A stretch of 64,000 bases of DNA from IMG/VR virus record IMGVR_UViG_3300021376_000006; one strand, given 5' to 3'. The translations under genes and the position numbers were made by a program. Numbering within the stretch: position 1 is the stretch's first letter; each line of letters begins with the position of its first letter. Of this stretch, positions 12,699 through 63,999 are shown one piece after another. The stretch is from a virus (lineage: Duplodnaviria > Caudoviricetes). The notes below the pieces were generated by a model, which searched no databases, was not told the origin of the DNA, and saw only the letters and a list, made by a program, of their open reading frames with translations.

Positions 12699-13608
12699 TA
12701 TTGCAGATTTAGATTGTATCTTTTTAACTTATGACGAACCTAAAAAAGAAGAATTTTGGATTAGGATTCAAAACATGGTACCGTGGGCAAAGAGAGTTGA
12801 TGGAGTTAAAGGGTCTGATGCAGCGCATAAAGCAGCCGCTGCCGCGTCAGACACAGACCGTTTTGTTGTTATTGACGGAGACAATATTCCGGATCCAGAA
12901 TTTTTTAATCTACAACTATCGTTGGACGAGAGAAATCATGACCACGTTTTTAGGTGGAAGGCCAGGAATGCTGTAAACGGTTTAAGATATGGTAACGGTG
13001 GTGTAAGCTGCTGGACCAAGGATTTCGTTAATCGTATGCGAACACACGAAGCAAGTCTTGGGGATGAGGAAACTGCCGTTGAGTTTTGTTTTGATCCTAA
13101 GTATACAGCAATGCATAATTGTTATAGCACTACATATCCTAATGGTAGTTCCAAACAAGCATGGCGTGCAGGATTCCGTGAAGGTGTCAAGATGTGTCTT
13201 AACAGGGGACACAAGCCCACTCTACAAGAATTTGAAGAAGGTGTGAACAAAAGGAACTATGATAATTTATGTATATGGCACTCAGTGGGTGCAGATGTGG
13301 AAAATGGTTATTGGGCAATGTATGGAGCACGATTAGGCACATACATGATCATGCTTGAAGGGTGGGATCATCATTATGTTCAGGACTTTGACATGCTTGA
13401 AAAACTATGGACCAGTTTTAGTACTGAAGATCCTGAAGAAGGTTGTGCTAGGATCCAAGATGCATTAAAAAATAGATTAGGATTACCTATTGTTATGTAT
13501 ACACCAGAACAAAGTCAATTTTTTAAACATCACTACAGTATTGGGCAGCGTAATAGTGAAATTATGATGACTGAGATAGATGTAATTCGGAGGATCGAAG
13601 GATGGTAA
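12679..13608 (+). CDS. GT-A (GT2-like) glycosyltransferase-like protein
   Basis: DCIFLTYDEP, RVDGVKGSDAAHKAAA and FVVIDGDN (DxD). Homologous to the C-terminal domain of 29987..31846. Confidence 0.55.
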   Translation: MTKKIIDIADLDCIFLTYDEPKKEEFWIRIQNMVPWAKRVDGVKGSDAAHKAAAAASDTDRFVVIDGDNIPDPEFFNLQLSLDERNHDHVFRWKARNAVNGLRYGNGGVSCWTKDFVNRMRTHEASLGDEETAVEFCFDPKYTAMHNCYSTTYPNGSSKQAWRAGFREGVKMCLNRGHKPTLQEFEEGVNKRNYDNLCIWHSVGADVENGYWAMYGARLGTYMIMLEGWDHHYVQDFDMLEKLWTSFSTEDPEEGCARIQDALKNRLGLPIVMYTPEQSQFFKHHYSIGQRNSEIMMTEIDVIRRIEGW

Positions 13609-27368: not shown

Positions 27369-27800
27369 ATGACAACTAGAATTCTTATAATGGGATTGCC
27401 CGGAGCAGGCAAAACTACGCTTGCAATAAATTTATTAAACTATTTTAGTCCGGATGTTCTCTGGTTAAATGCAGATGAAATAAGAAAAAAATTTAATGAT
27501 TGGGATTTCAGCTATGAAGGACGAATTCGTCAAAGCCGACGAATGAGAGAAATAGCAGATGTTTCAAACAAAGATTATGTAATTGCAGATTTTGTTTGTC
27601 CCCTAAAAGAAATGCGCGACATTTACGATCCGCACTTTTTGATTTGGGTAGATACAATAGCAGAGGGTAGATTTGAAGATACTAATCGTGTGTTTCTTCC
27701 GCCCGAAACACACGATGTAAGAGTGACCGAGCAAGATGCAGGTCGATGGGCAAGGACAATATATGAACAAATATCACATAAGATTCAATCACCAACATAA
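27369..27800 (+). CDS. cysC: Adenylylsulfate (APS) kinase-like P-loop protein
   Basis: ILIMGLPGAGKTTLA (Walker A), WLNADEIR, DFS.EGR.RQ..RM and DFVCP as in CysC-like kinases; short (143 aa). Confidence 0.65.
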   Translation: MTTRILIMGLPGAGKTTLAINLLNYFSPDVLWLNADEIRKKFNDWDFSYEGRIRQSRRMREIADVSNKDYVIADFVCPLKEMRDIYDPHFLIWVDTIAEGRFEDTNRVFLPPETHDVRVTEQDAGRWARTIYEQISHKIQSPT

Positions 27801-31846: not shown

Positions 31847-32924
31847 TTTGTTCTACAATTGTTTCAACTTCGCTATCTAAAAGTTCGGGATAGATAGGCA
31901 GGCTAAGACATTCTCGAGTAAAGGCAGCAGTTTCTGTGAATAAATCTTTTCCGTAATCTATGTAATTAAATCCTACACCTAAATCATACAGAGCAGATTC
32001 ATAATGTATTTTTGTTTCTATTCCTTGTCTGGCCAGATGACCCATTAAAGCTGACCTGTTATTAGTTCTAATTACAAATTTGTGCCAGGCATGTTCGACG
32101 CCCTTGTTTGGTACCGAAATGTCAACAAATTGATATAATTCGTTAATATAATAATCAGCTATCTCTTTGCGCCTCCTCTGCCACGAATCAAAATGTTGTA
32201 ATTTGATAAGCATTTGAGCACAATCACTTTCGCTCATTTTGCTATTGGTTCCTGGAGTGTCGTGGATACTTTTACCATTGTCCCTGAGAGTTCGACATGT
32301 CTCATATATATGATAGTCGTCGGTTAGAATCATTCCGCCGCTACCGTAATTGTTCAAGTTTTTAGTTGGATCAAAACTCAAAACACTGATATCGCCGAGT
32401 TTTCCACTAGGAACGCCCTGATAACTTGCTCCGAAACTTTGTGCAGCATCTTCGATAATAATTAAATCATCATTAAAGAATCTGGTCTGCATTTGAAACC
32501 TGTCCCAGTCTACACAGTTGCCAAACAAATTAACATACATGACAGCGCCAACACTTTGATCAAGCTTATATTCGTAGCTATCAAGATCAATTAGTCCTTT
32601 GTGATCGATATCACAAAACACTGGAGTAAAATTATTCATTAGCACACTATTGATAGTAGCCACAAAACTCACAGTAGGAATTAAAATTGAATATGGCGGT
32701 CTGGACACCGCGGCCATTTGTGCAAAAATCAATGCTTGTGTTCCAGAATTGACTGCTAATGCATATGCTCTGTTACACCGTTTTGCTATTTTATTTTCAA
32801 AGTGTTCTGTGTAAGCGCCATCGAGGACGCGACCGGTAGAGTACACCCGATCTGTTATTTCTAATATTTCTTCGCGAATATTTTGGTACTGTCTATGAAT
32901 TCCGAAAAAAGGAATTACTTGCAT
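31824..32924 (-). CDS. DegT/DnrJ/EryC1/StrS PLP-dependent sugar aminotransferase
   Basis: AVNSGTQAL, IIEDAAQSFG, SFDPTKNL..YGSGGMI, LSLPIYP. Confidence 0.9.
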   Translation of the reverse strand: MQVIPFFGIHRQYQNIREEILEITDRVYSTGRVLDGAYTEHFENKIAKRCNRAYALAVNSGTQALIFAQMAAVSRPPYSILIPTVSFVATINSVLMNNFTPVFCDIDHKGLIDLDSYEYKLDQSVGAVMYVNLFGNCVDWDRFQMQTRFFNDDLIIIEDAAQSFGASYQGVPSGKLGDISVLSFDPTKNLNNYGSGGMILTDDYHIYETCRTLRDNGKSIHDTPGTNSKMSESDCAQMLIKLQHFDSWQRRRKEIADYYINELYQFVDISVPNKGVEHAWHKFVIRTNNRSALMGHLARQGIETKIHYESALYDLGVGFNYIDYGKDLFTETAAFTRECLSLPIYPELLDSEVETIVEQIKFYIDS

Positions 32925-33889
32925 AATCTAGACTGCCAATAATCTGATTGTTGAAACCATTCATAATAGCGTTGGAATCCTTCTTCAACGTTGACCCTAG
33001 GCGAATAACCAAAATCTTGTGTGGCGCGATCGATATTAAGTCTTCCTCGCTTAGGAAAATTCAAATCTCGATCTTGTATTTCAATCGAGCCTTTGCCGGC
33101 TATTGCAATTGCCAACTCGGCTGCATCGCATAATGTATATTGACGTTCTGCACTTCGAGTAATATTATAAATTTTATTTGCACTATATTTACTGCAGGTT
33201 GCTTGAACAATTCCCAAAGCAGCATCCTCGACATAAGTGAAATCTAATACTTCATTGGCACCTTTAACTTTGAGAGTTTCGCCTTTCATTGCTGTTAGCA
33301 TAAATTTTGATACTACACGGTCCTCTACATCCCATTCGCCATAAACTGCACTAGGACGAATAATTACCGATTCAAAACCGTGTTGACGAGCATAATCTTC
33401 GACCAGTTTTTCGCCCATGTATTTCATAATGCCATATTGGCCAATTGGATTGCATACAGCATCTTCTGTTACATCTGTTTCAAAGTCGCCGTATACCATG
33501 CTAGAACTAATATAAACAAAACGTTTTACTCGATGAGTTGCTGCTGCTTCGAGTAAATTAATCAATCCGGTGCTCATCACTTCACTGGCTACAACAGGAT
33601 TTCGACCAACAACTTTTTGTCTAGGAAAACTAGCCAGATGTATAATAGTGTCACAGCCAAAAACACCAACACGACTTTTAATATCATCACCATTGCGTAT
33701 ATCGCCAACTAACGGTGTTGCACGTATTCTTGATAATCTTTCTCGTATCAAATAATCTAATTCGTCTTGTGGAACGAATCCATAGTTGGTACGACTATCG
33801 ACTCCAAAACATTCAATGCCATGTTTTTCTAATTGTTGTACTACATTATGACCAATAAAGCCCGCACTACCTGTTATAAAAACTTTCAT
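32915..33889 (-). CDS. NAD-dependent epimerase/dehydratase (extended SDR)
   Basis: ITGSAGFIG, YISSSMVYG, YGIMK (YxxxK), IIRPSAVYG. Confidence 0.9.
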   Translation of the reverse strand: MKVFITGSAGFIGHNVVQQLEKHGIECFGVDSRTNYGFVPQDELDYLIRERLSRIRATPLVGDIRNGDDIKSRVGVFGCDTIIHLASFPRQKVVGRNPVVASEVMSTGLINLLEAAATHRVKRFVYISSSMVYGDFETDVTEDAVCNPIGQYGIMKYMGEKLVEDYARQHGFESVIIRPSAVYGEWDVEDRVVSKFMLTAMKGETLKVKGANEVLDFTYVEDAALGIVQATCSKYSANKIYNITRSAERQYTLCDAAELAIAIAGKGSIEIQDRDLNFPKRGRLNIDRATQDFGYSPRVNVEEGFQRYYEWFQQSDYWQSRLCK

Positions 33890-34518
33890 TGTAATTTATA
33901 TTCTATATAAAAAATTGGATAATCGTTAACTGGTGAATTGGTTTGATAACAATTAGTTCGTTGTAAGTTAACTAAAAATTTATCAAAGGTATCACGGTTA
34001 CACCCCCATGAACTCTCTTGTAACAGTATTACACCGTCCGGGGTTAGATGTTTGGAAATGTTGTTAAAAAATTCTTTATGTATAACCCAATCTAGATCTA
34101 AATAAATTCTAGGATCGTTTCTTAACACAATTTCTTGATAATTTACTGGCTTAGAAAAGTGTGGAGGATTTGCCACCACCAGATCAAATTTTTTGGTTAT
34201 TGGTAAACTAGAAATTTTATCTGTGCAATAAGTGGTAACATTTAAATTAGTATTATAACATGATAAACTATGTGTAGCAAAATTCAAAGCAGATTGATGT
34301 TGATCTACTAGTGTTAATTCTTTGCAGTAATTGTTTAATAATAAATCAAATCCAATAAAGCCAGGGCCCGAACACCATTCTAAGCAGCATTTGAATTCGC
34401 GATGAGCATAGTGTGTGTTTAGAATATTTTTAAAATCTAATCCAATTGATGTTCCGCCGCCGTCAACATCATCTTCATAATGTAACTGAAAATCTCCTAT
34501 ATCAAATATACGTTTCAT
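33886..34518 (-). CDS. Class I SAM-dependent methyltransferase (NPPH motif)
   Basis: LEWCSGPGFIG (motif I) and FDLVVANPPHF (motif IV, amino-methyltransferase type). Confidence 0.75.
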   Translation of the reverse strand: MKRIFDIGDFQLHYEDDVDGGGTSIGLDFKNILNTHYAHREFKCCLEWCSGPGFIGFDLLLNNYCKELTLVDQHQSALNFATHSLSCYNTNLNVTTYCTDKISSLPITKKFDLVVANPPHFSKPVNYQEIVLRNDPRIYLDLDWVIHKEFFNNISKHLTPDGVILLQESSWGCNRDTFDKFLVNLQRTNCYQTNSPVNDYPIFYIEYKLQ

Positions 34519-49399: not shown

Positions 49400-49592
49400 A
49401 TCTTAATAACCCTGATTCGTAATAAAGTGCAGTTAAATCTAAATATTCTAACCTATAGGTTACAAAGGAAGGACGCCAAAATCTTGCTGTTTTATCTAGC
49501 CTTACAGTTATTACCCTTTTGTTTATTCGAATAGACCAAACACAAGAAAATCTTGACTTACAATAATAAAAGTTTATATCATTTTTAGTCAT
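49380..49592 (-). CDS. Hypothetical protein
   Basis: 70 aa, TGATG coupling with queE. Confidence 0.4.
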   Translation of the reverse strand: MTKNDINFYYCKSRFSCVWSIRINKRVITVRLDKTARFWRPSFVTYRLEYLDLTALYYESGLLRYERNEN

Positions 49593-50440
49593 CAAGTTCC
49601 CCATTCGTTTTTAAATAACGGTACTTGAAGTCTATCGCTGTATCGTAAACCATGTTTCATTGCTAACAGTGCAACGTTGCGGTTATTTAAAGTATATACA
49701 CTTTCAATACCTCCTACTGGCATAAGATAAATTGATCCTTTAAATCCTGCATTACGATACTGCTCTGTGGCTTTTAAAGCATCTGTGACATCTTCTTCGG
49801 TTGCCACAACAAACTTGAGATAGGTGTAACCAACAGTGGCATAATCGCACACAATGTTGGGTTTGATTGCATCTTCCCATGACTCTCCACTGACAGGTAG
49901 TTTTGCGCTTACACTGAATGTAACTTCTCTATCTCGAGACGCAGCAGTCCATTCGCCTAGATAATGTTTGAACTCTTTGGTTAGCTCTTGAGTACCGTTA
50001 GTTTCAAAAGTAATTTCTTTTAACTTTTGCATACGAGGATGATTCAGCAGATCTTCGTAACTACGCTGCCAACCTAGTAGAGGCTCGCCACCTGTAATAA
50101 CAAGATGTTCGTCCTTCCACTTGCTATGTGGAAGAATTTCCATAATTTGTTCCACAATTGCATCACTGGTTAGCATAGGACTAAGATCTTTGAATCTTGG
50201 ATCCCAGCTTGCATAACTGTCACAGCCTGTACTTACCAAAGGTAAATCATCGTATTTGTTGTAATAATGCACTCTTGCTGCTATATCTTCTACTTCTCTA
50301 CTTAGTTTTCCTCTAGGCATACCGAATCCTGCACATTTAAAGTTGCAACCAAATGTGCGAAGAAAGACACTAGGCACACCCATGTATCTGCCTTCGCCTT
50401 GGATTGAATAAAATAGTTCAGCTACTTTGATTTTACTCAT
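49592..50440 (-). CDS. queE: 7-carboxy-7-deazaguanine synthase (radical SAM)
   Basis: ELFYSIQGEG..G.PSVFLRTFGCNFKC...CDS..SW, VITGGEPL, TFETNGT, DRLQV. Confidence 0.85.
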   Translation of the reverse strand: MSKIKVAELFYSIQGEGRYMGVPSVFLRTFGCNFKCAGFGMPRGKLSREVEDIAARVHYYNKYDDLPLVSTGCDSYASWDPRFKDLSPMLTSDAIVEQIMEILPHSKWKDEHLVITGGEPLLGWQRSYEDLLNHPRMQKLKEITFETNGTQELTKEFKHYLGEWTAASRDREVTFSVSAKLPVSGESWEDAIKPNIVCDYATVGYTYLKFVVATEEDVTDALKATEQYRNAGFKGSIYLMPVGGIESVYTLNNRNVALLAMKHGLRYSDRLQVPLFKNEWGT

Positions 50441-50442: not shown

Positions 50443-50967
50443 TTATCCTTGGTAGGTTGCACTGTTAGCACCGTGCTCAAATACTTCTACACTTTTTATA
50501 CGCACAGTTGGATTGATTGGATAACGCAAAGCGTCACCGGCTAACAGTTCACTCATTTTGTCATAGCACATCTTGGCAAACATTTCGCACCCTACACCCG
50601 GAACAATGCGTAGATCACACAATGCACCTCGTTCGTATGGTTTAACTTGTTCTAAACTTCCGGTACCAGACATAGGCATGTTGCCCTGATGACTCATTCG
50701 TACAAAAAAATCTAGGTGAGGATCATCTTCGGCCACAATTAGAGTATGATCAAACATGTAGTCGGCCCATGACTTGAATTCTTTGAGACCTCCAAAGTCC
50801 ATGCACCAGTTTTTATCGTCTAGTGTATCACATTCAAATACCAGCCGAATGCCAATTGAATAACCGTGTAGCGTTGAACAATGGCTGTGTGTGGCACGCC
50901 ATTGTCTAAAGCAACAGCTGAGTCCTCGGTCGTTGCCATAAGTTTTTGTTGAGTAAAATTGTGCCAA
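50443..50967 (-). CDS. queD: 6-carboxy-5,6,7,8-tetrahydropterin synthase (QueD/PTPS)
   Basis: HSHCSTLHGY, MDFG, FDH, VFEH..NSATY; TTG start with AGGAG Shine-Dalgarno; adjacent to queE. Confidence 0.85.
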   Translation of the reverse strand: MAQFYSTKTYGNDRGLSCCFRQWRATHSHCSTLHGYSIGIRLVFECDTLDDKNWCMDFGGLKEFKSWADYMFDHTLIVAEDDPHLDFFVRMSHQGNMPMSGTGSLEQVKPYERGALCDLRIVPGVGCEMFAKMCYDKMSELLAGDALRYPINPTVRIKSVEVFEHGANSATYQG

Positions 50968-51273: not shown

Positions 51274-51558
51274 TTACAGTTTGAATATTGTTGGCAGTAA
51301 CATACTGGCAGTACTAGCATCATCCCCGTGAAAGTGAAGTCTAGTACCGCCTGTGCCATTTTGGTGATGATGACAACGTTTTGCCTTGCCGTAACTAACA
51401 TATTTCACAATTTGTTCTCGACCACGACTGTCCCAAAATTTAGATTCAATTACAGTGCCGTCAATCATCTTGTACCACTCTATCATATCATCAGTGAGTT
51501 CGTCTACATCAATCCAGACCGCATACGTTACTGTGCAACCTGGTGGTAAAGCTATCAT
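51274..51558 (-). CDS. Hypothetical protein, possibly frameshifted near its 3' end
   Basis: ATGA coupling with the PRTase gene; 8-nt direct repeat near the end (see findings). Confidence 0.5.
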   Translation of the reverse strand: MIALPPGCTVTYAVWIDVDELTDDMIEWYKMIDGTVIESKFWDSRGREQIVKYVSYGKAKRCHHHQNGTGGTRLHFHGDDASTASMLLPTIFKL

Positions 51559-52103
51559 TGAGCCCACCACGTTTCCCAAGGAAAAACAACCCAACAAGGA
51601 TCATCGAGTTTGTTTATGTTGCGACCGCTATAGCTAATACCTTCGTAGCTGCTGGCTTCATTGTTTACAACAACTGCGAATCTTACATTACGGTTCCAGA
51701 TTGCCGACCATGCAGGATGATTGGGCAAGCAACTGCTCTGCCAATCTTGTCTAATCCATTCTAGTGTAGCACCTGAGTCATTGATGTCATCCACTATCAA
51801 TATTTTTTTTCGATAAGCAGGATCAGTGTCTGCATCACCTGAACCACGTTCGTCTTTGGGCACATAACCAAATGCCTGTTCGGCCATCCATAAATTACTT
51901 TCAGATTCCCCACCGTCACGCAAGCTCACTTTAAGTGTTTCACAAGGAACACCAAAGTAATGACTGATCATTACAGCAGGTTGCAATCCGCCCCGAGTTA
52001 TACCAACTACATAATCTGGACGCCAATTACTATTTGCAATATCTCTGCACAGTTTGTTGACCAAACCTTTGAATTCAGAATCTGAAATAATTAGTTGTTT
52101 CAT
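51555..52103 (-). CDS. Type I phosphoribosyltransferase (purine/xanthine-guanine PRT-like)
   Basis: YVVGITRGGL, ILIVDDINDSGAT (PRPP loop), WVVFPWE. Confidence 0.85.
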   Translation of the reverse strand: MKQLIISDSEFKGLVNKLCRDIANSNWRPDYVVGITRGGLQPAVMISHYFGVPCETLKVSLRDGGESESNLWMAEQAFGYVPKDERGSGDADTDPAYRKKILIVDDINDSGATLEWIRQDWQSSCLPNHPAWSAIWNRNVRFAVVVNNEASSYEGISYSGRNINKLDDPCWVVFPWETWWAQ

Positions 52104-52542: not shown

Positions 52543-53238
52543 CTATCTGGGAGCAAATTCTTGTTGTAGTTTAACGTTGTCAAAAAATTCTTTTTTGGTT
52601 GCAGCATCGTCTTTGAATGCGCCTCTCAACACTGTTGTTTGGGTAAGACTGCTATGTGCCATAATGCCTCTATTCTCGCAGCAACCGTGCGTGGCTTGTA
52701 TATAAACTGCCACATCCTTACTTCCAGTTGCAAACTCAATTTCTCTGGCGATATCCATACATAGTTCTTCTTGAAGTGTGCCGCGCCGCGCACACCATTG
52801 TGCAATTCGCGTGTACTTCGAGAGACCAATGAGTTTGGGTCCAGCAATAATACCAATATAAGCAACACCCGACACAGGTTGATGATGATGGCTACAAACA
52901 CTTTTAAGTTCGCTTCGAACTACAAGCATTCCGTCGTATGCCCCATCAGTGTCATTTGGAAATGCAGTTGCGTTGGGTGTAGGATCATATCTACCTGCCA
53001 TCAATTCATAGTAATACATTTTGGCAAGACGTCTTGCTGTGCCTTTACTGTTGGGATCAGTTGCTCGGTCAATCAACAATGTATCTAGCACTTGTTCAAA
53101 AGCCTCTGTGGCTTCGTCAATCAACTGATCTCGATCTTCGTCATTCACATAACTGCTTATGTTGTCACCGGCCCAATATCTCTTGCCGTCTGCCTGCATC
53201 TGTTCTCTAATACGATCACTTACTCTTGTATATTTCAT
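52543..53238 (-). CDS. folE: GTP cyclohydrolase I
   Basis: GTARRLAKMY, SVCSHHHQP, GLSKY.RI, LQEEL, HGCCENRG, FKDD. Confidence 0.92.
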   Translation of the reverse strand: MKYTRVSDRIREQMQADGKRYWAGDNISSYVNDEDRDQLIDEATEAFEQVLDTLLIDRATDPNSKGTARRLAKMYYYELMAGRYDPTPNATAFPNDTDGAYDGMLVVRSELKSVCSHHHQPVSGVAYIGIIAGPKLIGLSKYTRIAQWCARRGTLQEELCMDIAREIEFATGSKDVAVYIQATHGCCENRGIMAHSSLTQTTVLRGAFKDDAATKKEFFDNVKLQQEFAPR

Positions 53239-53850
53239 TTAATCTCCAATAATTGCGATATCTCTTAGATCTGGATATTCGTGATATTTAGGTTGTTCAT
53301 TCAGTGTTAGAAGTTTTTCTAAACCGATCCTTGCATCTTCGATAGTGGGGCGATAATGATAACCAACCTTGAAAACACGCTGTTCCTGCCACGGCAAGAA
53401 ATTGAGATTTCTTCCGTCATAGCGTTGTTGTAATAGTATATCATATGCCTCGTAATCGTCTAACAGTATAGCACCACCGTGGCCTATCTGTAAAGGTTTA
53501 TTATGACCAAAACTCAAACACTGCATCATACCAGGCCGATACATGCCGTCTTCCAATCTTCTAGCACTATCCCAAATGTCTGTTCCGTAAAATCTATACT
53601 CACCTGTCCATTTTTCTGGAACTAATTTGTATTCTATTCCTAACTTGTGCATGATCATTGGGATTGATAGATAGGTGTATGCGGTAAACTTGACTCGTTG
53701 AACCTTATTGTAGCGCAAACATAACTCAATCGCATGTGTACAGCAATCAGTCATTATGGCATAAGGTGCACCAGTTTTCTTTGCTAATAATTTTTCAAAT
53801 TGCGCTATTTCTTCAAAGGCCACGTGTGTACCATTTATAAGCTGAATCAA
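53239..53850 (-). CDS. Short DegT-like PLP-dependent enzyme
   Basis: TDCCTHAIEL, WDSAR, CLSFGHNKPL..G.GGAIL; only about 200 aa. Start uncertain. Confidence 0.65.
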   Translation of the reverse strand: MIQLINGTHVAFEEIAQFEKLLAKKTGAPYAIMTDCCTHAIELCLRYNKVQRVKFTAYTYLSIPMIMHKLGIEYKLVPEKWTGEYRFYGTDIWDSARRLEDGMYRPGMMQCLSFGHNKPLQIGHGGAILLDDYEAYDILLQQRYDGRNLNFLPWQEQRVFKVGYHYRPTIEDARIGLEKLLTLNEQPKYHEYPDLRDIAIIGD

Positions 53851-54778
53851 CGATTTGGTTGATAGTTGAATAGTTAGGACGCCAGTTCAGTACTGATTGT
53901 GCTAGGCCAGCATCTGCAACTAGTTGATCCGGATCTCCGGGCCTACGTTCGCCTACGTGTAATTTTAACGGTCCATATTTTAATGTAATATAATCTACAA
54001 TTTCTTGATTGCTTATTCCGCTATTGGTTCCCAAATTAAACACTGCAAATTGCTGATCAGTGTTCCAATGTATAGCTCTATGATGTGCATCAGCTAAATC
54101 CCATACATGAATGTAATCTCTAATACAGGTTCGATCTGGTGTTGCAAAGTCTACACCGTTTAGAGTGAAAAATTCATCACGAATTTTAGATTCTAATAAT
54201 CTAGCAATGATGTGTCCTGCGCCCGGTGCTTGACCTAGGTCGTGATTGTAAGGTTCGGCACCGGCGGCGTTAAAGTATCTAAAACAAACACCAGGTAATC
54301 CGTATGCTTGGTTATAATTTTGAAGCACTACTTCAATAATATCTTTAGTGTGGCCGTATGGACTAATAGGTTTTATCCTGTCAGTTTCAACCAGTGGAAC
54401 ATGATCAGGGTTGCCGTACACACTAGCACTAGAACTAAAAAGAATAATCGGTTTCTTTTTATAATCCTTAACATGATTTAAAAATGTAATTGTCTTTGCT
54501 ACATTGTTATCATAATATTTTGCCGGATCTTCAACACTTTCTCTAACAGAGATATCCCCGGCACAATGTACAATGACATCGGGTTGTAATTCGTCTAACC
54601 ATAATAAACTTTGTTTAGATACATAGTCAGTATGTAAAAATCCATCAACATTTTTTAATGTGTGATCTCTACGCTCACTATCAATAACATACACACTTGA
54701 ATTTTTGTTGTGTTGTTTTAAATAGCGAGAAATGTGACTACCAATGTAGCCACATCCGCCTGTAATGACAATTTTCAT
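53813..54778 (-). CDS. galE: UDP-glucose 4-epimerase-like
   Basis: ITGGCGYIGSH, FSSSASVYG, PYGHTK, FRYFNAAGA, IRDYIHVWDLADAH, RRPGDP. Confidence 0.85.
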   Translation of the reverse strand: MKIVITGGCGYIGSHISRYLKQHNKNSSVYVIDSERRDHTLKNVDGFLHTDYVSKQSLLWLDELQPDVIVHCAGDISVRESVEDPAKYYDNNVAKTITFLNHVKDYKKKPIILFSSSASVYGNPDHVPLVETDRIKPISPYGHTKDIIEVVLQNYNQAYGLPGVCFRYFNAAGAEPYNHDLGQAPGAGHIIARLLESKIRDEFFTLNGVDFATPDRTCIRDYIHVWDLADAHHRAIHWNTDQQFAVFNLGTNSGISNQEIVDYITLKYGPLKLHVGERRPGDPDQLVADAGLAQSVLNWRPNYSTINQIVDSAYKWYTRGL

Positions 54779-55971
54779 TAGTACTTGCTTTCGTGTGTGT
54801 GTTTACGATAGTCTGTACTCATTCGCAACCAGGATTCTCCGTTGCCTTGGAGAATATCGCAGATCCTATCAATAGTCGAGTCGTTCCACGCACTAAACTT
54901 GCCCATGTTGTTGTGCGGATGTTGTAAGAGGGGTACAAGTTTTTGTATTGCATCTCTAATCGACCACGGGACATAAAGTCTCTCGCTATCATTTGCAAAA
55001 GCTTCGGGGAAACTTCTGTAGGCGGGGTATAAAATATTAGCCCCAAGAGCGTCAGCTTCACTTGCTGTGTTCGAAACCCAATCCTGTAGAGCACAATTAA
55101 ACAATACTCGCGTATCCGTGAGTAATTCATAGTAATCATTCTTTTCAAGATCTTCATACACAGTCAGTTTGCCTTCGGCCTGCAGTCTACGTGTACGTTC
55201 CATGTAACTGCTATTGTTACTACGCAACTTGCTGCCGCTGAATACACAGAATTCTACCCGGGGCCAATCGTTATATGGCAATGTCTGCAGTCTATGATAT
55301 TCTTCGATTAGATCCATGTAGAAGTCTGGCTGCTTCTCTTGATCCCACCTAGCAGCAAAACCTACACGGTAAGCTCTATCTTCGAATCTTTTTAGATCTC
55401 CGGGTACACGACTGCGTACTTCGTCTTTACCAAACGCCAGTCCACTGATATTATACAGCCTACCCTGCCAGCCTGCAACCTTCATGTGCATGACCATTTC
55501 TTCATTAGTGGCAAGAATTATATCGGCAAACGAGTCGACCATCTTTTCATAGTGTCCCATCCATTCTTGCATACCCCATACATGAACAAAATCATCGGGG
55601 TCAATAGTTTGTGCAAGACAGCGAACGGCAATGCGAGGACGGCTACCAGCGTCCACTTGATCCAAAATGTAAGGTAGGCTTTCGATGCCGGGTTGAAACA
55701 TGTCCTCAAAGTATACAACATCTTCATTAGTAACTGCTCCTGCTTTCATTAGACGAATAAGATTCATAAGTTGGCTCATGCCAAAATATGTACGACCATG
55801 TGCATCAAGGACTTGACCAGTAACAATAGCTTGGTCATTGCTTAGTGTGTCGCCGGGCACAATTTCATAGTCGATGCCGCGGCGTTCAAACACTGCACGA
55901 TTCCATTCTTGTAATTGTAATGTATAACGTGCCTTATAAGGCTCTAGGCCCATGTACCATAATTTACGCAT
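54778..55971 (-). CDS. GT-B (GT4-like) glycosyltransferase
   Basis: GFAARWDQEKQPDF, FNCALQDWVSNTASEADALG..LYP..RSFPE; adjacent to galE. Confidence 0.65.
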   Translation of the reverse strand: MRKLWYMGLEPYKARYTLQLQEWNRAVFERRGIDYEIVPGDTLSNDQAIVTGQVLDAHGRTYFGMSQLMNLIRLMKAGAVTNEDVVYFEDMFQPGIESLPYILDQVDAGSRPRIAVRCLAQTIDPDDFVHVWGMQEWMGHYEKMVDSFADIILATNEEMVMHMKVAGWQGRLYNISGLAFGKDEVRSRVPGDLKRFEDRAYRVGFAARWDQEKQPDFYMDLIEEYHRLQTLPYNDWPRVEFCVFSGSKLRSNNSSYMERTRRLQAEGKLTVYEDLEKNDYYELLTDTRVLFNCALQDWVSNTASEADALGANILYPAYRSFPEAFANDSERLYVPWSIRDAIQKLVPLLQHPHNNMGKFSAWNDSTIDRICDILQGNGESWLRMSTDYRKHTHESKY

Positions 55972-56393
55972 TATTTTTCTCCTGTATCTGTAGCGACCTT
56001 GATATTTAGACCGCGTAGTGCGCTGTCAGGAATTTGTACTCTCGTTGACTTTTGAGCTATCACACTGTTCCAATATTCTTGTGCTCGATAGCCACCTTGT
56101 GTGAAATTCTTTTCAGGGTAAGAAAGTTGATTTTTCAATGATTGTACTTGATCATCAAGTCTTTTGATCCATCTCCAATGATCTTTTATGTCTTCTTGCA
56201 TTCTACGCAATGGCCCTTGAGCTCGAACATCTGCTTCATTATCTCCGCTATCAGTCAATATCACCATCATCATGAGTTGACGTAGTGCATTCTTTACTCT
56301 AGGATCATCGCTGGTCATTGCTCGATCAAACATTTCCGTCAAACGTTCTAGATCGAAGTTGGCTGCGTCTTTTTCTCTCATTGCTCCACTCAT
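55971..56393 (-). CDS. Hypothetical protein
   Basis: 140 aa, coupled. Confidence 0.55.
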   Translation of the reverse strand: MSGAMREKDAANFDLERLTEMFDRAMTSDDPRVKNALRQLMMMVILTDSGDNEADVRAQGPLRRMQEDIKDHWRWIKRLDDQVQSLKNQLSYPEKNFTQGGYRAQEYWNSVIAQKSTRVQIPDSALRGLNIKVATDTGEK

Positions 56394-56611
56394 TGTACAC
56401 GATCCTTTTTAGCGTACCAATTCATCTTGGGCCATTTTCCACGTTGGGCACGATCAAACTCACCCCAGGGAGTTTTTTCATTGTATAGGTGTCTTTCATC
56501 ATACGGATATCCGTATGTGACACAAAATTCACGATATTTTTCAAGGTCGTCAAAAATTTGACTGACTTCAGGTTTCATAGTCAGGTATTTCTTGAGCCAT
56601 TTAGCGGCCAT
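56390..56611 (-). CDS. Hypothetical protein
   Basis: 73 aa, AAGGAG Shine-Dalgarno. Confidence 0.6.
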   Translation of the reverse strand: MAAKWLKKYLTMKPEVSQIFDDLEKYREFCVTYGYPYDERHLYNEKTPWGEFDRAQRGKWPKMNWYAKKDRVQ

Positions 56612-56621
56612 GTTTATCTCC

Positions 56622-57071
56622 TTAGATTTTTATTGAAAGAGAAGGTTGATGAGTTGCATAAGTTATGGAGCAGCCGTTTTCGTTGTCTTCGCTTACACTG
56701 ATTGTAACATTGCGTTCGGGATACCTGTTAGCGATTTGAACATATAAATCATCTGCAATCATTTCACAACTTTTGTGATCTAATTGCAATACAGCTTGGT
56801 CGCCCGAATACAATTGTTCGATCCAGCGTTTGAACTGGATGAATTCGATGTCTCTGTCATTGTGAAATACATCAATACTAATCCTAAAATGAAATATATG
56901 GCGATGAGGATGGCCAAGGAACGAAACGTCATATTTGTCTCCGGTTGCGAGTAGTGGATCGGTCAGTGCTGCTGGATATTGATGGATACCTTCTCGAGAA
57001 AAAGTAACCCAAATCTGTCTTTGAGCGTGGTGTAAAATTCTATCAACTGTTTCTCTTTGTGATTGGATCAT
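56622..57071 (-). CDS. Second QueD-like T-fold protein (DpdL-like candidate CDG decarboxylase)
   Basis: FLGHPHRHIFHF His cluster, HNDRDIEF, SCEMIA, VSEDNENG..ITY. Confidence 0.6.
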   Translation of the reverse strand: MIQSQRETVDRILHHAQRQIWVTFSREGIHQYPAALTDPLLATGDKYDVSFLGHPHRHIFHFRISIDVFHNDRDIEFIQFKRWIEQLYSGDQAVLQLDHKSCEMIADDLYVQIANRYPERNVTISVSEDNENGCSITYATHQPSLSIKI

Positions 57072-57664
57072 AATAAATTCAAGTTGTCAAAAGTTATTGT
57101 TTTAGTATAAATTCCAAATTGCAAATAGTCAATCAATTTGATTATCAAATCTGCGATTTGTGCGGTACTTTGTAATAGTTTATCTTTAGGTAATATACCG
57201 TTCAATGAATGTATAAAATTGGTGTCTAATAGAGCCGGATTAATTTCAATTATTTTTAATTGAGAATCAATTTGACGATGTATATCTATCATGTTTTTTT
57301 GTTTTCTTTTTTCTTCTATGTACTTTTTTTCTTTGGGATTGAAGTTTACGTAAAATGATTCAGGTTTGTCTACCAAGAAACTTCCTATGTGAATTATCAA
57401 TTTGTTTGGATCATATCGCCATACTTTTAAAATATATTTAAGAAGCATGGTTTGCCCAAACGCATCGTATGCGTTGTTAATAAAAACATCTGCCGATCGA
57501 CTTAATTGTAATATTTTTGCTATGGTACTAAGTTTACTAATGTCGTACCCATCAATGATATCATATCCTACAACTTGATTTTGACCAAAATTCTTATAAT
57601 ATTGTAGTCTGAGACAAAGAGCTTGCCCTAAGCCAGATTTATGGCCAGTTATAACCAATTTCAT
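57068..57664 (-). CDS. Short-chain dehydrogenase/reductase
   Basis: VITGHKSGLG, DVFINNA, YIEEK (YxxxK). AT-rich. Confidence 0.7.
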   Translation of the reverse strand: MKLVITGHKSGLGQALCLRLQYYKNFGQNQVVGYDIIDGYDISKLSTIAKILQLSRSADVFINNAYDAFGQTMLLKYILKVWRYDPNKLIIHIGSFLVDKPESFYVNFNPKEKKYIEEKRKQKNMIDIHRQIDSQLKIIEINPALLDTNFIHSLNGILPKDKLLQSTAQIADLIIKLIDYLQFGIYTKTITFDNLNLL

Positions 57665-58194
57665 TTAATTACTTCGTCTTTGGTATACTGTGACCAATCA
57701 GTAAATACACCGTCTCTACGCATCAGGCTGTGTACACTATGGCACCACACCCCAGGATTAGAATGTGCAAAATTAGTATCATCGATTTTTATTGTTGCAT
57801 TATATCCAAGCTGTTGTATATAGGGCAATTTAACCGATATCATTGGAATAAACTTTTGATATTCAACAAGAGTAGATTCTAGCAATCCTTCTACTTCTCT
57901 CACATCTATATCCAAAGTACACCAATAACCACGTCCTATAAAAGGCATGATCATATTTTCCCATCGTGTCCAATCTTGACTTGTAGCGCGACCTGTTGGA
58001 AAACTTTGGTTAGCACCAAAATATATGTGTTCAATTTTTTTGTTTACTTGGGTGAAAGGATCATTTAGTATCTGTTCAATGTCTTCAGTAGATTTCACTC
58101 CTGCTACAAAAAGAGTTTTCAAGCCATATGCTGGACTATGTTCTACTTCAGTGCCTAAAAACATAGTAACATCATTGTGTCCAGGTCTGTCCAT
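57661..58194 (-). CDS. Hypothetical protein in the deazaguanine locus
   Basis: 177 aa; HIYFGANQSF and WCTLD motifs; no family recognised. Confidence 0.6.
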   Translation of the reverse strand: MDRPGHNDVTMFLGTEVEHSPAYGLKTLFVAGVKSTEDIEQILNDPFTQVNKKIEHIYFGANQSFPTGRATSQDWTRWENMIMPFIGRGYWCTLDIDVREVEGLLESTLVEYQKFIPMISVKLPYIQQLGYNATIKIDDTNFAHSNPGVWCHSVHSLMRRDGVFTDWSQYTKDEVIK

Positions 58195-58407: not shown

Positions 58408-59952
58408 TTATTCCTCCAAATGAGTTTGCATAATTGTTTCTGCTTCGTCCTCAGACATTTCGTCTTCAACTTCTTCTACTGTTTCAAAAAGTGCATTAAA
58501 CATGGTATGACTGTTCTTTGTTTTTTTGCCTTTGAATCCTCTTGTGCCAACGATGTCCATCCAATAACTATCGTAGCGTTCAACAATTGCTTCGGCACTT
58601 GCACGATCAGGTGCAGAGAAAACAGCTTCAACAATGTCTCTGAATCTAGCATGGTCACCATTGACATTCCACAGCATGCTAGGTCGTTCTCCTGCATCAT
58701 ACGCTCTATTCGCTCGCTGAACTGATTCAATATGCATCCAAACATTGTGCCCCATCATTAATGCGTAACTAAAACTATCCCAACTGGTTCGACCTTCCTT
58801 GCCATTTTTATTCAGGTCACCGGGTTGATATATACAAACATCTTTAATTAGCAAATGTTTACTTATTGGACTGTCCTCAAATTGTTCAAAGATACCATCT
58901 TGTAATACCGCATCTCGAAACAGTCTAGTGTCTGTGGCGTATTTCTTGTCATCGGCACTGGGCTTCATTTTGTACGACCATTTACTATCGTGTTCAAGAC
59001 TAATGGCATGATACATCTGTCCATTGGCAGTAGCAAGAAACGGACTGGCGCAATCAAAACTGATTGTAAATGCTGGATTGACATACTTACGAACGGCTCG
59101 TTGAATGTCAGTTAGTAACAACGCCCATTCTAGTTTACTTGTTCCTAGAAAGTGCATCCAATCATGTACACCTTCTTGCAGTAGATTATCATATCTCAAT
59201 GCAACTAATCTTTTAAGAACAAGATGAATATCACACATGTTCTGACCGCCCATAGCCCAGCCATCAAAATGTGTATCTGGATATATGGTAGGATCGCAGA
59301 ACTGTTTCATTTCTTGATACCATTCTTCTGCCGAAGTATGATTGTCACCTTGAAGAACGTTTAGGAACTTAGCACCACCGTTGTTCTTTCCTTGACGGTG
59401 TTGCATAAAGTAATTGTTGTTAAACTTGGTAGCATCAACTGCTTCTTGGAGAGTAGTAATGCCGCAGGCCTTGCTTGCTTTCTTGTCATGGATAACCCAA
59501 GTTGGAATATCAAGAATCATACCATAGTCAGCAATACCGTCTAGCCATTTTAACACAGCCGAACGTTTCTTTTCAGCTTTTGAACACCCGCTATTGGCTT
59601 TCCAATCACCTTCCCACAAGCCCTTGGCAATCTGAAATCCGCCGGAGTCACCTAACATAAAGGTTCCAGGTTCTCTCTTGCGAACCATGTCTTCACTGGC
59701 ATCCTCTTTAGTAAGATCTAGGTTTGCGTGTCCTCCGGAGTAGAGATTCCATCTGTAGGGGAACAGGGCTTGTTGGCTGTTCAGCCAATTGAATTGCTCC
59801 ATGTCCTGTAATGCCTGTGGCATACGAGCAGGATCAACATAGTCATTGTTAACACGTTGTTTTCCTATAAAAGTTGCATAGAATCCAGATATAGCAGGCA
59901 AGAACACTGCATAATCTGATTGCTTTGCTGTTAAATTATCTTGGTTCGTCAT
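58408..59952 (-). CDS. dpdA: TGT-superfamily guanine transglycosylase, probable DNA 7-deazaguanine inserting enzyme (DpdA-type)
   Basis: GDSGGFQ (TGT signature), MILDIP, LNVLQG, GWAMGG, HFLG, SFDCASP, HNVW; located with folE, queD and queE. Confidence 0.75.
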   Translation of the reverse strand: MTNQDNLTAKQSDYAVFLPAISGFYATFIGKQRVNNDYVDPARMPQALQDMEQFNWLNSQQALFPYRWNLYSGGHANLDLTKEDASEDMVRKREPGTFMLGDSGGFQIAKGLWEGDWKANSGCSKAEKKRSAVLKWLDGIADYGMILDIPTWVIHDKKASKACGITTLQEAVDATKFNNNYFMQHRQGKNNGGAKFLNVLQGDNHTSAEEWYQEMKQFCDPTIYPDTHFDGWAMGGQNMCDIHLVLKRLVALRYDNLLQEGVHDWMHFLGTSKLEWALLLTDIQRAVRKYVNPAFTISFDCASPFLATANGQMYHAISLEHDSKWSYKMKPSADDKKYATDTRLFRDAVLQDGIFEQFEDSPISKHLLIKDVCIYQPGDLNKNGKEGRTSWDSFSYALMMGHNVWMHIESVQRANRAYDAGERPSMLWNVNGDHARFRDIVEAVFSAPDRASAEAIVERYDSYWMDIVGTRGFKGKKTKNSHTMFNALFETVEEVEDEMSEDEAETIMQTHLEE

Positions 59953-60559
59953 AAAAATCAAGGTTACTTATAAATTTGTAGTCGTTGTGATATGTAATAA
60001 TAATTTTAGATTTTAATTTAGGATCGTTGTCGATACGTGATTTGATAAATTTTATAACCTGGGCGTTATCGTAATTTGATTCTGATCTGTTATCTTCAAT
60101 GTTATCAAGTGTATTTAGATCATAGCCCAAGTAATGATTTATTTGTTGCTTTAAATTTTTGTTAAATCTAAAATATACTGGATCGTAATTCAAAATTTGT
60201 TGTATATATTTTAACTGAAAGTCAGTATGATCATCAAACACGATTTGATCAAAGATTATTCTTTCGGCTAAATGGTTGTAATCAGAAACAAAGTGATCAC
60301 TGCCATAGCCTGATCCTAGCAGGCGTAAAGAAGCGTAAGTACCAAATCCACTCAGCCATCTTTCTACAGGATCTCTTATTACCACCAAGCAATTTTTAAT
60401 AGCAATTGGTTGATCAATGATATTCCAGTGTGACCAAGAATTGTATTTCAACAAATTAGTTAAATAGGTGCTTGCATTTTTTGGAATATTGAGATAAAAT
60501 ATTTCCCGGTCAGGGGACAACATACCTCCGCCGGGAACATATCCTGTGTCTTTGATCAC
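59936..60559 (-). CDS. Sulfotransferase-like protein
   Basis: FYLNIPKNAST (5'-PSB loop) and VVIRDPVERWLSG (3'-PB motif). AT-rich. Confidence 0.65.
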   Translation of the reverse strand: MIKDTGYVPGGGMLSPDREIFYLNIPKNASTYLTNLLKYNSWSHWNIIDQPIAIKNCLVVIRDPVERWLSGFGTYASLRLLGSGYGSDHFVSDYNHLAERIIFDQIVFDDHTDFQLKYIQQILNYDPVYFRFNKNLKQQINHYLGYDLNTLDNIEDNRSESNYDNAQVIKFIKSRIDNDPKLKSKIIITYHNDYKFISNLDFYDEPR

Positions 60560-62295: not shown

Positions 62296-63999
62296 TTATT
62301 CAAAGGTAAACAAGGTATCAAATGTTGTTTTGATATCAGTATAATTAGGTATATCCCATTCTAGTACTCCCAAGAGATTTTCTACCTTTTGATCCACAAT
62401 TGTGGCTTCCATAAGATTATCGTCAAATGGCAATTCTTTAAACCAAGCAGGAATATGACTTTCATCTGTGGGATAACCTACACTGGTGTATCCTAACGCA
62501 TTGTCTTTTAATTTGCAAACAATAGTTTTCATACCATCCACAATAGCCATGCTGTAATTGTCCCCGTGCATGCGCCGTAAGTTGTTCCAGTTAAGAGCAG
62601 CACGAACATGACCCGGCATATTGGCACGACCAAGTCGCTCTTCTTCTCGACCGTACTTGGTTAGATTATTGACACGTTTAGGTGTACCTTTTTCCCAAGC
62701 AGGTCTATCTTGGAACGCAATTTTGAATTCTCGTACACGGTCGTAGATTTCTTCCTTGTCTGCTCCAGTTAGTACCGCAGTCAACAGTTCACTCAAGAAG
62801 TCTTGTACAACCTTGGGAGTATCTGATCGTTTAAGATCAAGACCCATTGCTTTTACTTTACCGGGCTTGCCATGTGTGTCTAGTCTGTGCCCTTCTAGGT
62901 CATAGATAAGAACAGCATAGCGTTTTTTCTTTATGAATAGTCCCTTACTAGCGACAAGTTCTCGCCCCCCTCGTATTAGCTCACCCATTGGTCTTGGTAC
63001 ATGACAGGCCCTTTCCATAAAAGCCGGGAAGGAATCATTGACTTGATCTGCGATATTATCGTAAAGTTGGGCACAGATGTCTCGGTTCCATTCCATCCGA
63101 CCTGATTCAACTTCTTCTCTAACTGCAGGCCATGCTGTAAAATAGCATGAATCAGTGTCACCGTAGATGATGGATTTGCCCACATGGTTATATTCTCCGA
63201 ATATGCACTCATTGATATACGCATCCATGTGCCGCGCGATAATCCTTCCAGTGAGAGTAGTACTTTGACCAATTCTTTTATCGAAAAATCTACAACCTGG
63301 ATTGAGGATCGCTCCGTAGAGACTGTTAAGGTTAATTTTCTTGACAAGTTGTCGCTTGTCCCAGAACGCTTGGTCTTCTTTCGTATTAGCTTCTTTTTTC
63401 TTGGCTTGTAATTCCTTGCGTTCTGCATACCACCTCTCTAATAGTCCAGGCACAACTGCTTTTTGTTCATAACTGAATATAGTACCATTTGCACTTAGCA
63501 TCCATGGACGATTACTATCAAATATAAGTCTCCATATATCAGCTGCACTCATTATATCTGAACCGCCGGCTTCCCAATCAATGGTAATTTCTGTGCCAAC
63601 TTCTCCATTCATTACTGCGGTATACTCAAGACTGCCAAACATGTTTTCCCATGCATCTGCAAAACTACTGCCACCGGCCATTTTTTCTTGAATATACCTG
63701 TCGGTCATTATTGGCCGCAGCTGACCGACGATCGACTCTTGTGCCATGTTAAGAGCGCGGATTGCTGACGGGTAGAGACTGTTGATGTCGATTGCTCCGA
63801 TCCAGTCGTGCATGCCTTTTTTGGGGAAAGCAACATAGGCACCTGCTGCTTGCGTATCTCCTTGGTCATCTCTTCCTTTCCTATCAGGTACAACCATACC
63901 TCGTTGATGTGCTTCGTTGATAATTGCCTGCTCAGTCACTGCCACAGCACCCATGGTAGTTTGTAACAGCACGGTGTTATCATGTGCAAGTTCATTGGC
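62296..63999 (-). CDS. Family B DNA polymerase (C-terminal polymerase domain; 5' end outside the window)
   Basis: DINSLYPS (region II), KINLNSLYG (III), YGDTDS (I), KKKRYA; frame open to the window edge. Confidence 0.95.
   Translation of the reverse strand, partial: ANELAHDNTVLLQTTMGAVAVTEQAIINEAHQRGMVVPDRKGRDDQGDTQAAGAYVAFPKKGMHDWIGAIDINSLYPSAIRALNMAQESIVGQLRPIMTDRYIQEKMAGGSSFADAWENMFGSLEYTAVMNGEVGTEITIDWEAGGSDIMSAADIWRLIFDSNRPWMLSANGTIFSYEQKAVVPGLLERWYAERKELQAKKKEANTKEDQAFWDKRQLVKKINLNSLYGAILNPGCRFFDKRIGQSTTLTGRIIARHMDAYINECIFGEYNHVGKSIIYGDTDSCYFTAWPAVREEVESGRMEWNRDICAQLYDNIADQVNDSFPAFMERACHVPRPMGELIRGGRELVASKGLFIKKKRYAVLIYDLEGHRLDTHGKPGKVKAMGLDLKRSDTPKVVQDFLSELLTAVLTGADKEEIYDRVREFKIAFQDRPAWEKGTPKRVNNLTKYGREEERLGRANMPGHVRAALNWNNLRRMHGDNYSMAIVDGMKTIVCKLKDNALGYTSVGYPTDESHIPAWFKELPFDDNLMEATIVDQKVENLLGVLEWDIPNYTDIKTTFDTLFTFE

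Follow-up and report, generated by a model that had tools for sequence, protein, structure and literature searches.

A GT4-like glycosyltransferase as a candidate component of the QueC-less, DpdL-type 7-deazaguanine DNA-modification clusters of phages

A stretch of viral DNA of 64,000 nucleotides (IMG/VR record IMGVR_UViG_3300021376_000006; the whole of it is called the window below) belongs to an uncultured giant T4-like freshwater phage, with a family-B polymerase at 62296-63972, and carries a 397-aa glycosyltransferase gene (54778-55971) inside a cluster of 7-deazaguanine genes. Comparison with related contigs and cultured phages showed that this gene linkage is tight and ancient, and the protein is best read as an integral, hitherto undescribed component of the DpdL-type 7-deazaguanine DNA-modification module that is devoid of QueC. 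A sequence-only reading of region 53239-57664 had proposed that a sugar is placed on the deazaguanine of the DNA; of that proposal, the link of the sugar transferase to the deazaguanine pathway is well supported by the gene contexts, while DNA is only a candidate acceptor, alongside the free base. That the enzyme glycosylates the 7-deazaguanine moiety, with the product ending up in DNA, appears to us an evenly balanced proposition.

The closest set of relatives comprised 80 viral contigs in which the glycosyltransferase was 71-93% identical to that of the window, 68 of them with enough upstream flank. DpdL was present in 76 of the 80, and in 67 of the 68 it lay no more than 4 kb upstream of the glycosyltransferase gene, the core order in these contigs being polB, a 240-aa gene, a tRNA-guanine transglycosylase (TGT)-like gene, DpdL, a 73-aa gene, the glycosyltransferase, FolE, QueD and QueE. 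By a hidden Markov model of the family, the glycosyltransferase gene was also found next to DpdL, or one gene away from it, in BUCT-ZZ01 (a Synechococcus phage that is the nearest named relative), ACP17, PA5oct, BUDD (also X1), BCSR5 and Phosso; across these six cultured lineages both gene orders were seen, and the neighbors were otherwise different. Ten divergent members, 30-40% identical, were traced to metagenome contigs and provided nine contexts, one of which was too short to judge; DpdL was found in seven of the other eight, and the remaining one had QueD and QueE. Overall, every context sampled (the 80 close contigs, the six lineages and the eight divergent ones) fell in a deazaguanine cluster without QueC, and the module adjoined replication genes in every lineage examined. 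The sequence-only reading had asked whether the glycosyltransferase occurs independently of dpdA loci; the contexts gave no such case, and the idea survived this comparison.

In PA5oct and ACP17, the single copy of the glycosyltransferase lies inside the cluster. No QueC was detected among the open reading frames (ORFs) scanned at 28.7-64 kb of the window, and in five phages with the glycosyltransferase none scored above the cut-off of the QueC family. Phages phiST, RHph_I1_18 and Bakedbeans possess DpdL, but their whole genomes contain no protein of the glycosyltransferase family. Considering that DpdL clusters thus occur with and without the glycosyltransferase, the DpdL-type module exists in two versions.

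As a single sequence, the glycosyltransferase had no match in Pfam (E ≤ 0.01), NCBIfam, PADLOC or the PDB sequences. Its AF2 model, based on an alignment of 72 homologs that were 28-57% identical, reached a pLDDT of 95.7; Foldseek matched it to glycogen synthase, BshA, MshA, GlgM and SenB (E of 1e-11 to 1e-12), and VIA-align gave Z-scores of 24-27 to GT4 enzymes with 320-340 residues aligned, which is nearly the full length. The model displays two Rossmann-like domains with an interdomain cleft and a full-length GT4 match, i.e., a GT-B fold. The family profile in turn reached GT4 sequences in the PDB, namely WlaC (2.9e-4), GlgM and MshA, pairing the phage sRlDeEKqP with GRLDHNKNP (the GRLDxxK motif, which binds phosphate) and the phage lEA, with its glutamate, with EAMA/EAQA, and a weak PF00534 match was seen in some distant family members. 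The GT4-like nature that had been assigned from the sequence alone was, therefore, upheld by both fold and profile. Since there was no match to Glycos_transf_1 or Glyco_transf_4 above threshold, the protein was filed as a separate family within the GT4-like superfamily.

Two of the donor-binding residues, R208 and K213, are invariant in the 72 homologs down to 28% identity, and D297 and E305 are nearly so (E305 in at least 90%); thus, the donor site looks intact, although the first Glu of the EX7E motif is replaced in the phage enzyme (D297-x7-E305). The N-terminal acceptor domain has an invariant set of its own, consisting of R15, Q67, D90, D127, W137 and E142. From these residues and the predicted fold, the 397-aa protein looks like an active, retaining-type, GT4-like glycosyltransferase that uses a nucleoside diphosphate sugar. 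It shares the GT4 fold and the donor-binding Arg/Lys and Glu motifs with MshA, BshA, sucrose-phosphate synthase, SenB and BGluT, but differs from these small-molecule enzymes in being only 7-14% identical in sequence, in giving no Glycos_transf_1 match and in an acceptor-domain invariant set that, by profile search, matches none of them.

The α- and β-glucosyltransferases of T4, which are also GT-B enzymes, use UDP-glucose to modify the hydroxyl of 5-hydroxymethylcytosine (hmC) after replication, by which restriction is evaded. The window enzyme is likewise a phage-encoded protein of GT-B fold; unlike them, however, it has retaining GT4 enzymes as its closest structural matches, and no hmC pathway was seen. 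Among the ORFs scanned at 28.7-64 kb there was no hydroxymethylase, and the only gene of the thymidylate synthase family in the window encodes a ThyA of canonical type (357 bits; cut-off 327). An identity as hmC-type DNA glucosyltransferase was therefore rejected, since no source of hmC or 5-hydroxymethyluracil (hmU) was seen among these ORFs and the T4-type enzymes are not close structural matches.

The 517-aa product of the first gene of the cluster was also refractory to sequence searches. As a single sequence it had no match in Pfam, NCBIfam or PADLOC, 19 family members gave none to PF01702 (TGT) or PF23859 (DpdA) at E ≤ 1, and the family profile had none among the PDB sequences, the only database leads toward TGT/DpdA being Atlas feature matches of 0.94 and 0.89. 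The fold was more informative: for an AF2 model built from 19 homologs (pLDDT 84), the top 50 Foldseek matches in the PDB were all tRNA-guanine transglycosylases (E about 1e-7), and VIA-align gave a Z-score of ~19 over ~300 residues to the bacterial, human and archaeal TGT, which places the predicted model in the TIM-barrel TGT fold. Residues D105 (DSGGFQ), D151 (LDIP), Q204 (LQG), G238-G239 and D303 (FDC) are invariant in the 19 homologs, and, judged by the order and spacing of these motifs, would be the counterparts of the catalytic D102 and D280 and the base-binding D156, Q203 and G230 of the Zymomonas mobilis TGT. The conserved base-reading residues suggest that the TGT-like enzyme would insert a base with a free 2-amino group, which favors glycosylation either after insertion or at another atom. 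Homologs were found in PA5oct and Phosso.

Several observations were made around this gene. In Phosso, the homolog (L100/L101, record 323213-324739) is located ~170 kb from the cluster of DpdL, glycosyltransferase and folE, and matches in two pieces with one in-frame TAA, and may be interrupted or mis-sequenced. In a divergent contig (L106, 9076-11151), the gene that follows the glycosyltransferase encodes 691 aa with intein and LAGLIDADG matches, and may represent an intein-bearing base-exchange enzyme. In the window, a gene for a 207-aa protein (59936-60559, minus strand) overlaps the start of the TGT-like gene and has a sulfotransferase match that falls just short of the cut-off of 22 bits (21.8 bits, E 2.4e-4), with homologs in 21 of the 80 relatives, sometimes in two to three copies; a weak adenylyl sulfate kinase-like gene (27369-27800, plus strand), below its curated cut-off, is found 32 kb away.

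The DpdL gene itself had to be relocated. The sequence-only reading took the 177-aa gene as a DpdL-like boundary of the sugar genes, which did not stand, as family searches of its product (Pfam, NCBIfam, PADLOC) revealed no QueD, PTPS or DpdL signal; its Atlas model is poor (pLDDT 0.45), too low to name a fold. It is homologous to ACP17 ASD50402 and, in two loci (L094 and L102), to small ORFs lying between the DpdL and glycosyltransferase genes, and a homolog is present in 39 of the 80 related loci. DpdL has been defined by the signature LxxxHRHxF, in place of the CxxxHGH of its paralog QueD, its role as decarboxylase of 7-carboxy-7-deazaguanine (CDG) being only proposed (PMC10516641). The motif LGHPHRHIF in the 149-aa product fits this signature; the protein matches phrog_17812 at E of 5e-35, is 53% identical to ACP17 ASD50405 and 35.5% to phiST CGPG_00067 (tblastn, E 2e-10), and its H30, H56, R57, H58, F60, D72, R73 and E76 are invariant in 24 homologs. 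In Vibrio phage Bakedbeans, DpdL constitutes the C-terminal third of the 383-aa gp176 (L007, 8251-9402), fused to an uncharacterized N-terminal domain of ~250 aa.

As regards the other pathway genes, the NCBIfam models for FolE scored 108-135 bits, all under their curated cut-offs of 162-202. QueE scored just under the cut-off for Radical_SAM (28.9 bits; cut-off 29.5) and reached that for Fer4_12 (22.1 bits; cut-off 22); the protein annotated as QueE in BUCT-ZZ01 shares 45% identity with it.

Among known systems, the DpdL/DpdA3 system of phiST offers the closest comparison. In the DNA of this phage, plain 2'-deoxy-7-deazaguanosine (dDG) replaces all G, as determined by mass spectrometry (Cui, Hutinet et al., NAR 2023, PMC10516641). 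The phiST system and that of the window have in common FolE, QueD and QueE without QueC, the DpdL motif, a divergent TGT-family enzyme and a location beside replication genes. Unlike the window, the entire phiST genome is devoid of a GT-B enzyme, the phiST DNA carries the unglycosylated nucleoside, and the DpdA3 of phiST is 259 aa long, as compared to 517 aa for the TGT-like enzyme here; the window additionally encodes the glycosyltransferase, the 73-aa protein, GalE, a short aminotransferase-like protein (mini-DegT), a short-chain dehydrogenase (SDR) and a purine phosphoribosyltransferase. The same study found that ACP17 DpdL and DpdA together gave no dDG in E. coli, and its authors suggested that enzymes were missing (PMC10516641). 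For PA5oct, modified G has been inferred from restriction resistance only (PMC12191111), and where a jumbo-phage survey names the PA5oct deazaguanine system, that part of it makes no mention of a glycosyltransferase there.

A precedent for the chemistry is HuiG of the huimycin pathway in Kutzneria albida, which transfers N-acetylglucosamine onto the 2-amino group of a free base derived from preQ0 (PMC7439116); the gene-cluster family to which it belongs carries PF13439 glycosyltransferases (bioRxiv 2026.04.15.718813), and the dapiramicin pathway is a comparable system. HuiG resembles the phage enzyme in that it is a glycosyltransferase in a FolE/QueD/QueE cluster, using a UDP-sugar on a base derived from 7-deazaguanine. 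It differs in its free, O-methylated preQ0 acceptor and in serving a secondary-metabolite pathway that has QueC and neither a DNA-insertion enzyme nor DpdL. As compared by description, the two share the superfamily.

In the mechanism that we propose, FolE, QueD and QueE would make CDG, DpdL would take the carboxyl off, and the 517-aa TGT-like enzyme would swap guanine in the phage DNA for the deazaguanine base. The glycosyltransferase would then use a UDP-sugar to place a hexose on the deazaguanine moiety. In this clade the donor is probably UDP-galactose or UDP-glucose, which the neighboring GalE would convert into one another; the outcome, a deazapurine in DNA that bears a sugar, would be a further shield for the genome. 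The 2-amino group is the sole acceptor atom for which there is a precedent, i.e., HuiG, although both the acceptor and the stage (free base or DNA) are what we infer. The contrast with phiST, in which the absence of the glycosyltransferase goes together with plain dDG, supports this mechanism, and with a canonical ThyA and no hydroxymethylase seen, no rival acceptor is visible. Extended to specific phages, the tentative prediction, to which we give somewhat less than even weight, is that hexosyl-7-deazaguanine occurs in the DNA of the abundant freshwater T4-like clade as well as PA5oct, ACP17, BUDD/X1, BCSR5, Phosso and BUCT-ZZ01.

A number of points weigh against glycosylation in DNA. First of all, 7-deazaguanine has no hydroxyl, unlike hmC; O-glycosylation in the manner of T4 would thus be impossible without an extra step, and the sugar would have to be joined to the base by an N- or C-glycosidic bond. 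The solved structures nearest to the model are mostly of GT4 enzymes that glycosylate small molecules (BshA, MshA, sucrose-phosphate synthase, SenB and BGluT), which favors the free base as acceptor, and phage DNA glucosyltransferases are not close matches, the DNA α-glycosyltransferase of cyanophage S-TIM5 ranking 47th in BFVD with a TM-score of about 0.5. The family is acidic, with a median isoelectric point of 5.8; nonetheless, this value is uninformative on DNA versus a small-molecule acceptor because the TGT-like enzyme, which we infer to bind DNA, is equally acidic. Context sampling covered the better-scoring part of the family, members at E of 1e-10 to 1e-3 being left out. Lastly, a glycosylated deazaguanine nucleoside in the phages that carry the glycosyltransferase is a prediction from gene content. 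A predicted complex of the glycosyltransferase with DpdL scored 0.00, run without controls, and speaks neither for nor against binding.

These points bear on the most serious alternative, which we nevertheless regard as unlikely, namely that the glycosyltransferase acts only on a free molecule of the pathway (7-deazaguanine, CDG or a pterin intermediate) and the glycoside never enters DNA. The enzyme could then resemble HuiG, or BGluT, the cyanobacterial pteridine glucosyltransferase, and its product could be a storage, export or detoxified form or an inhibitor of a host enzyme. The small-molecule GT4 structures closest to the model, among them two BGluT entries at Z-scores of 23-24, agree with this alternative, as do the free base used by HuiG and the acidity of the family; by motif comparison, moreover, the invariant D151, Q204 and G239 of the TGT-like enzyme suggest that an unglycosylated base is inserted. 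However, the glycosyltransferase keeps company with DpdL and the base-exchange enzyme in particular, and not with FolE and QueD at large; none of the sampled loci combined it with QueC, the module stands among replication genes in every lineage, and a soluble glycoside has no evident benefit to a lytic phage.

It is rather improbable that the target of the glycosyltransferase is unrelated to deazaguanine, such as another base, a protein or the envelope, and that the gene is clustered through a shared early or replication transcription unit. Stray glycosyltransferases are indeed frequent in phage genomes, and in relatives unrelated cargo accumulates in the interval from the glycosyltransferase to folE, as seen in contig L024. 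Against this, adjacency to DpdL is kept in both gene orders, with differing flanks, across phages that are distantly related, if at all; these span T4-like freshwater phages, a cyanophage, the jumbo phage PA5oct, the 469-kb Phosso and phages of Xanthomonas, Burkholderia and Acidovorax, and the adjacency persists on short metagenome contigs at 30% identity. In addition, ThyA is canonical and no hydroxymethyl-pyrimidine pathway was seen in the window.

Least probable of all, in our judgment, is that the glycosyltransferase helps to make or insert plain dDG and leaves no sugar behind, either by way of a transient glycosylated intermediate or by assisting the long TGT-like enzymes in a non-catalytic role; this would explain the failed reconstitution with ACP17 DpdL and DpdA in E. 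coli (PMC10516641), the glycosyltransferase gene of ACP17 lying between the two, and also fits the 420-540-aa TGT-like proteins of the phages that have the glycosyltransferase, as against the 259-aa DpdA3 of phiST, which lacks it. Yet phiST makes dDG without the glycosyltransferase, the strict conservation of the residues that bind the donor speaks for genuine transfer of a sugar, and an adjacent GalE in part of the clade is sensible only if sugar is consumed.

If glycosylation of deazaguanine in DNA is true, no genome would previously have been described with a sugar-bearing purine, and DNA hypermodification would gain a new class, whose enzyme chemistry, with sugar placed on a nitrogen or carbon of the base, would also be new. 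To our knowledge, all known sugar decorations of DNA are on hydroxymethyl-pyrimidines, namely the hmC of T-even phages, hmU derivatives and base J. In the literature searched, we found no published description of glycosylated 7-deazaguanine in DNA, or of this glycosyltransferase with DpdL. Such glycosylation may also explain what the 2023 reconstitution with ACP17 DpdL and DpdA lacked, and would bear on phage escape from restriction enzymes and from the recently described defenses directed at deazaguanine, i.e., glycosylases and END nucleases. Freshwater viromes are very rich in the glycosyltransferase family, which comprises at least 8000 clusters at 90% identity (785 at 50%), and as it also occurs in cultured phages, the prediction is testable. 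What the window contributes is the corrected DpdL, the fold evidence for the TGT-like enzyme, the mini-DegT family, the counts of accessory genes and the HuiG precedent.

Further observations relate to the distribution of glycosyltransferases. A search of genome contigs with a 16-sequence alignment retrieved eight close relatives of 59-76% identity (L109-L116), in metagenome-assembled genomes assigned to seven bacterial groups: Haliscomenobacter (twice), Chitinophagales, Rickettsiales, Phycisphaerae, Syntrophomonadaceae, Bacteroidetes and Chloroflexi; these are most likely phage contigs mis-binned into bacterial genomes. BUCT-ZZ01 encodes a second and different GT-B glycosyltransferase (UTS52035; L001, 9010-10353) with a weak Glyco_trans_1_4 match, directly after folE and upstream of DpdL and the main glycosyltransferase, which hints at a two-sugar decoration.

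The layout of the locus is presented in Table 1. From ~62.3 kb down to 49.6 kb, all real genes are on the minus strand, and the order of transcription is the 517-aa gene, DUF465, the 177-aa gene, SDR-like, DpdL, the 73-aa and 140-aa genes, glycosyltransferase, GalE, mini-DegT and FolE, followed by two small ORFs, the purine phosphoribosyltransferase-like gene, a 115-aa ORF, QueD and QueE. The four genes originally named for the region (SDR, glycosyltransferase, GalE and a short aminotransferase) are indeed all there, on the minus strand, at the positions first given; however, three genes between SDR and glycosyltransferase, viz. DpdL and those of 73 and 140 aa, had been missed. The co-orientation and stop/start coupling noted earlier were also evident, with 4-nt overlaps at 57664/57661, 57071/57068 and 56393/56390, 1-nt overlaps at 55971 and 54778, and the folE ATG abutting the mini-DegT stop directly (TAAATG). 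A scan of 49-62.5 kb for promoters and terminators yielded numbers at chance (49 found versus 43 expected, and 8 versus 8, respectively), and at the nucleotide level the region matched none of 50,697 phage records. The 73-aa gene occurs between DpdL and the glycosyltransferase in 76 of the 80 related loci and was not found in the other phage lineages; the DUF465 gene is present in 36/80 loci and the 140-aa gene in 8/80.

Table 1. Genes of the deazaguanine and glycosyltransferase cluster, in order of transcription (coordinates refer to the 64,000-nt window).
Feature	Coordinates	Strand	Basis of assignment
TGT/DpdA-like base-exchange enzyme (putative), 517 aa (P0124)	58408..59961	-	Predicted fold and motifs
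DUF465 protein, 91 aa	58194..58469	-	PF04325, 44 bits (cut-off 25)
Uncharacterized protein, 177 aa (P0123)	57661..58194	-	Without family match
Short SDR-like protein, 198 aa (P0122), accessory	57068..57664	-	Motifs and model match
DpdL, proposed 7-carboxy-7-deazaguanine decarboxylase, 149 aa (P0277)	56622..57071	-	LxxxHRHxF motif and homology
Basic protein, 73 aa, isoelectric point 9.2	56390..56611	-	Position between DpdL and glycosyltransferase
Protein of 140 aa	55971..56393	-	Sole match DUF29, sub-threshold
GT-B/GT4-like glycosyltransferase, 397 aa (P0001)	54778..55971	-	Fold and family profile
UDP-glucose 4-epimerase GalE (P0126)	53813..54778	-	TIGR01179, above cut-off
Mini-DegT, short pyridoxal phosphate (PLP)-aminotransferase-like (P0125)	53239..53850	-	PF01041, 48 bits (cut-off 19.8)
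GTP cyclohydrolase I (FolE)	52543..53238	-	PF01227, 5e-38
Purine phosphoribosyltransferase-like (XGPRT/HGPRT type)	51555..52103	-	PF00156, 45 bits
QueD (CPH4 synthase)	50443..50967	-	PF01242, 57 bits; catalytic-type Cys-x3-HGH
QueE (radical SAM CDG synthase)	49592..50440	-	Radical_SAM, Fer4_12 and QueE homology

The sequence-only reading had further postulated a dedicated (amino)sugar, made by the genes around the glycosyltransferase. This was not sustained by the related loci, in which a GalE homolog directly follows the glycosyltransferase in 20 of 75 (at any position in the locus, 55 of 80 have one); 22 of 80 encode mini-DegT, and only 2 of 80 the SDR-like protein. Moreover, the annotated deazaguanine clusters of other phage lineages include none of these three genes. 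GalE, mini-DegT and SDR are, therefore, optional add-ons of this clade, outside the core machinery. In L024, the gap from the glycosyltransferase to mini-DegT/folE (11163-17771) is a site of variable cargo, occupied by a 403-aa ORF, a Bax1-I-like membrane protein, GalE, a radical SAM enzyme and, on the opposite strand, an AMP-binding enzyme.

Assignment of GalE is straightforward: it scored 280.2 bits for the equivalog TIGR01179 (cut-off 262.3) and 5e-44 for PF01370, and contains GGCGYIGSH (the GxxGxxG motif) and YGHTK. The SDR-like 198-aa protein had no Pfam match; it has TGxxxGxG at the N-terminus and YxxxK, and its Atlas model matches viral short-chain-dehydrogenase clusters with TM-scores of 0.83-0.91.

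Full-length fold-type I aminotransferases of the DegT/DnrJ/EryC1 class are ~360-390 aa long. Mini-DegT, at ~194-203 aa, is without the C-terminal domain of DegT and part of the large domain, and its PF01041 match covers only positions ~37-81 and 163-240 of the 360 of the profile, about two thirds of the profile being spanned. Judging by aligned Met codons in the relatives, its start is likely the GTG at 53823, which would give ~194 aa. The 22 homologs in related contigs are 192-227 aa long from stop to stop and 45-88% identical, and retain SFGxxKPL with the PLP Schiff-base lysine (SFGHNKPL in the window), WDSAR and TDxCTHA. The possibility of a truncated pseudogene was rejected, since length and motifs are kept in the 22 homologs down to 45% identity; by these conserved features, mini-DegT is a distinct short family, putatively aminotransferase-like.

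The purine phosphoribosyltransferase-like gene is situated between folE and queD, its match to xanthine phosphoribosyltransferase being weak, and homologs are found in the BUCT-ZZ01 cluster (one) and in 15 of the 80 relatives. Its product could recycle to GMP the guanine that base exchange sets free; alternatively, by analogy to ToyH and TubE, it could make a deazapurine nucleotide.

The sugar genes described here are distinct from the epimerase/aminotransferase pair elsewhere in the window, as was originally noted. That pair belongs to a separate module at 31824-34518 (minus strand), which encodes a full-length DegT aminotransferase of 366 aa whose best match, under the cut-off, is of PseC type, a 4,6-dehydratase/epimerase-like SDR of 324 aa and a HemK-like methyltransferase of 210 aa. 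ThyA and DHFR lie upstream of this module, at 35.8-37.9 kb.

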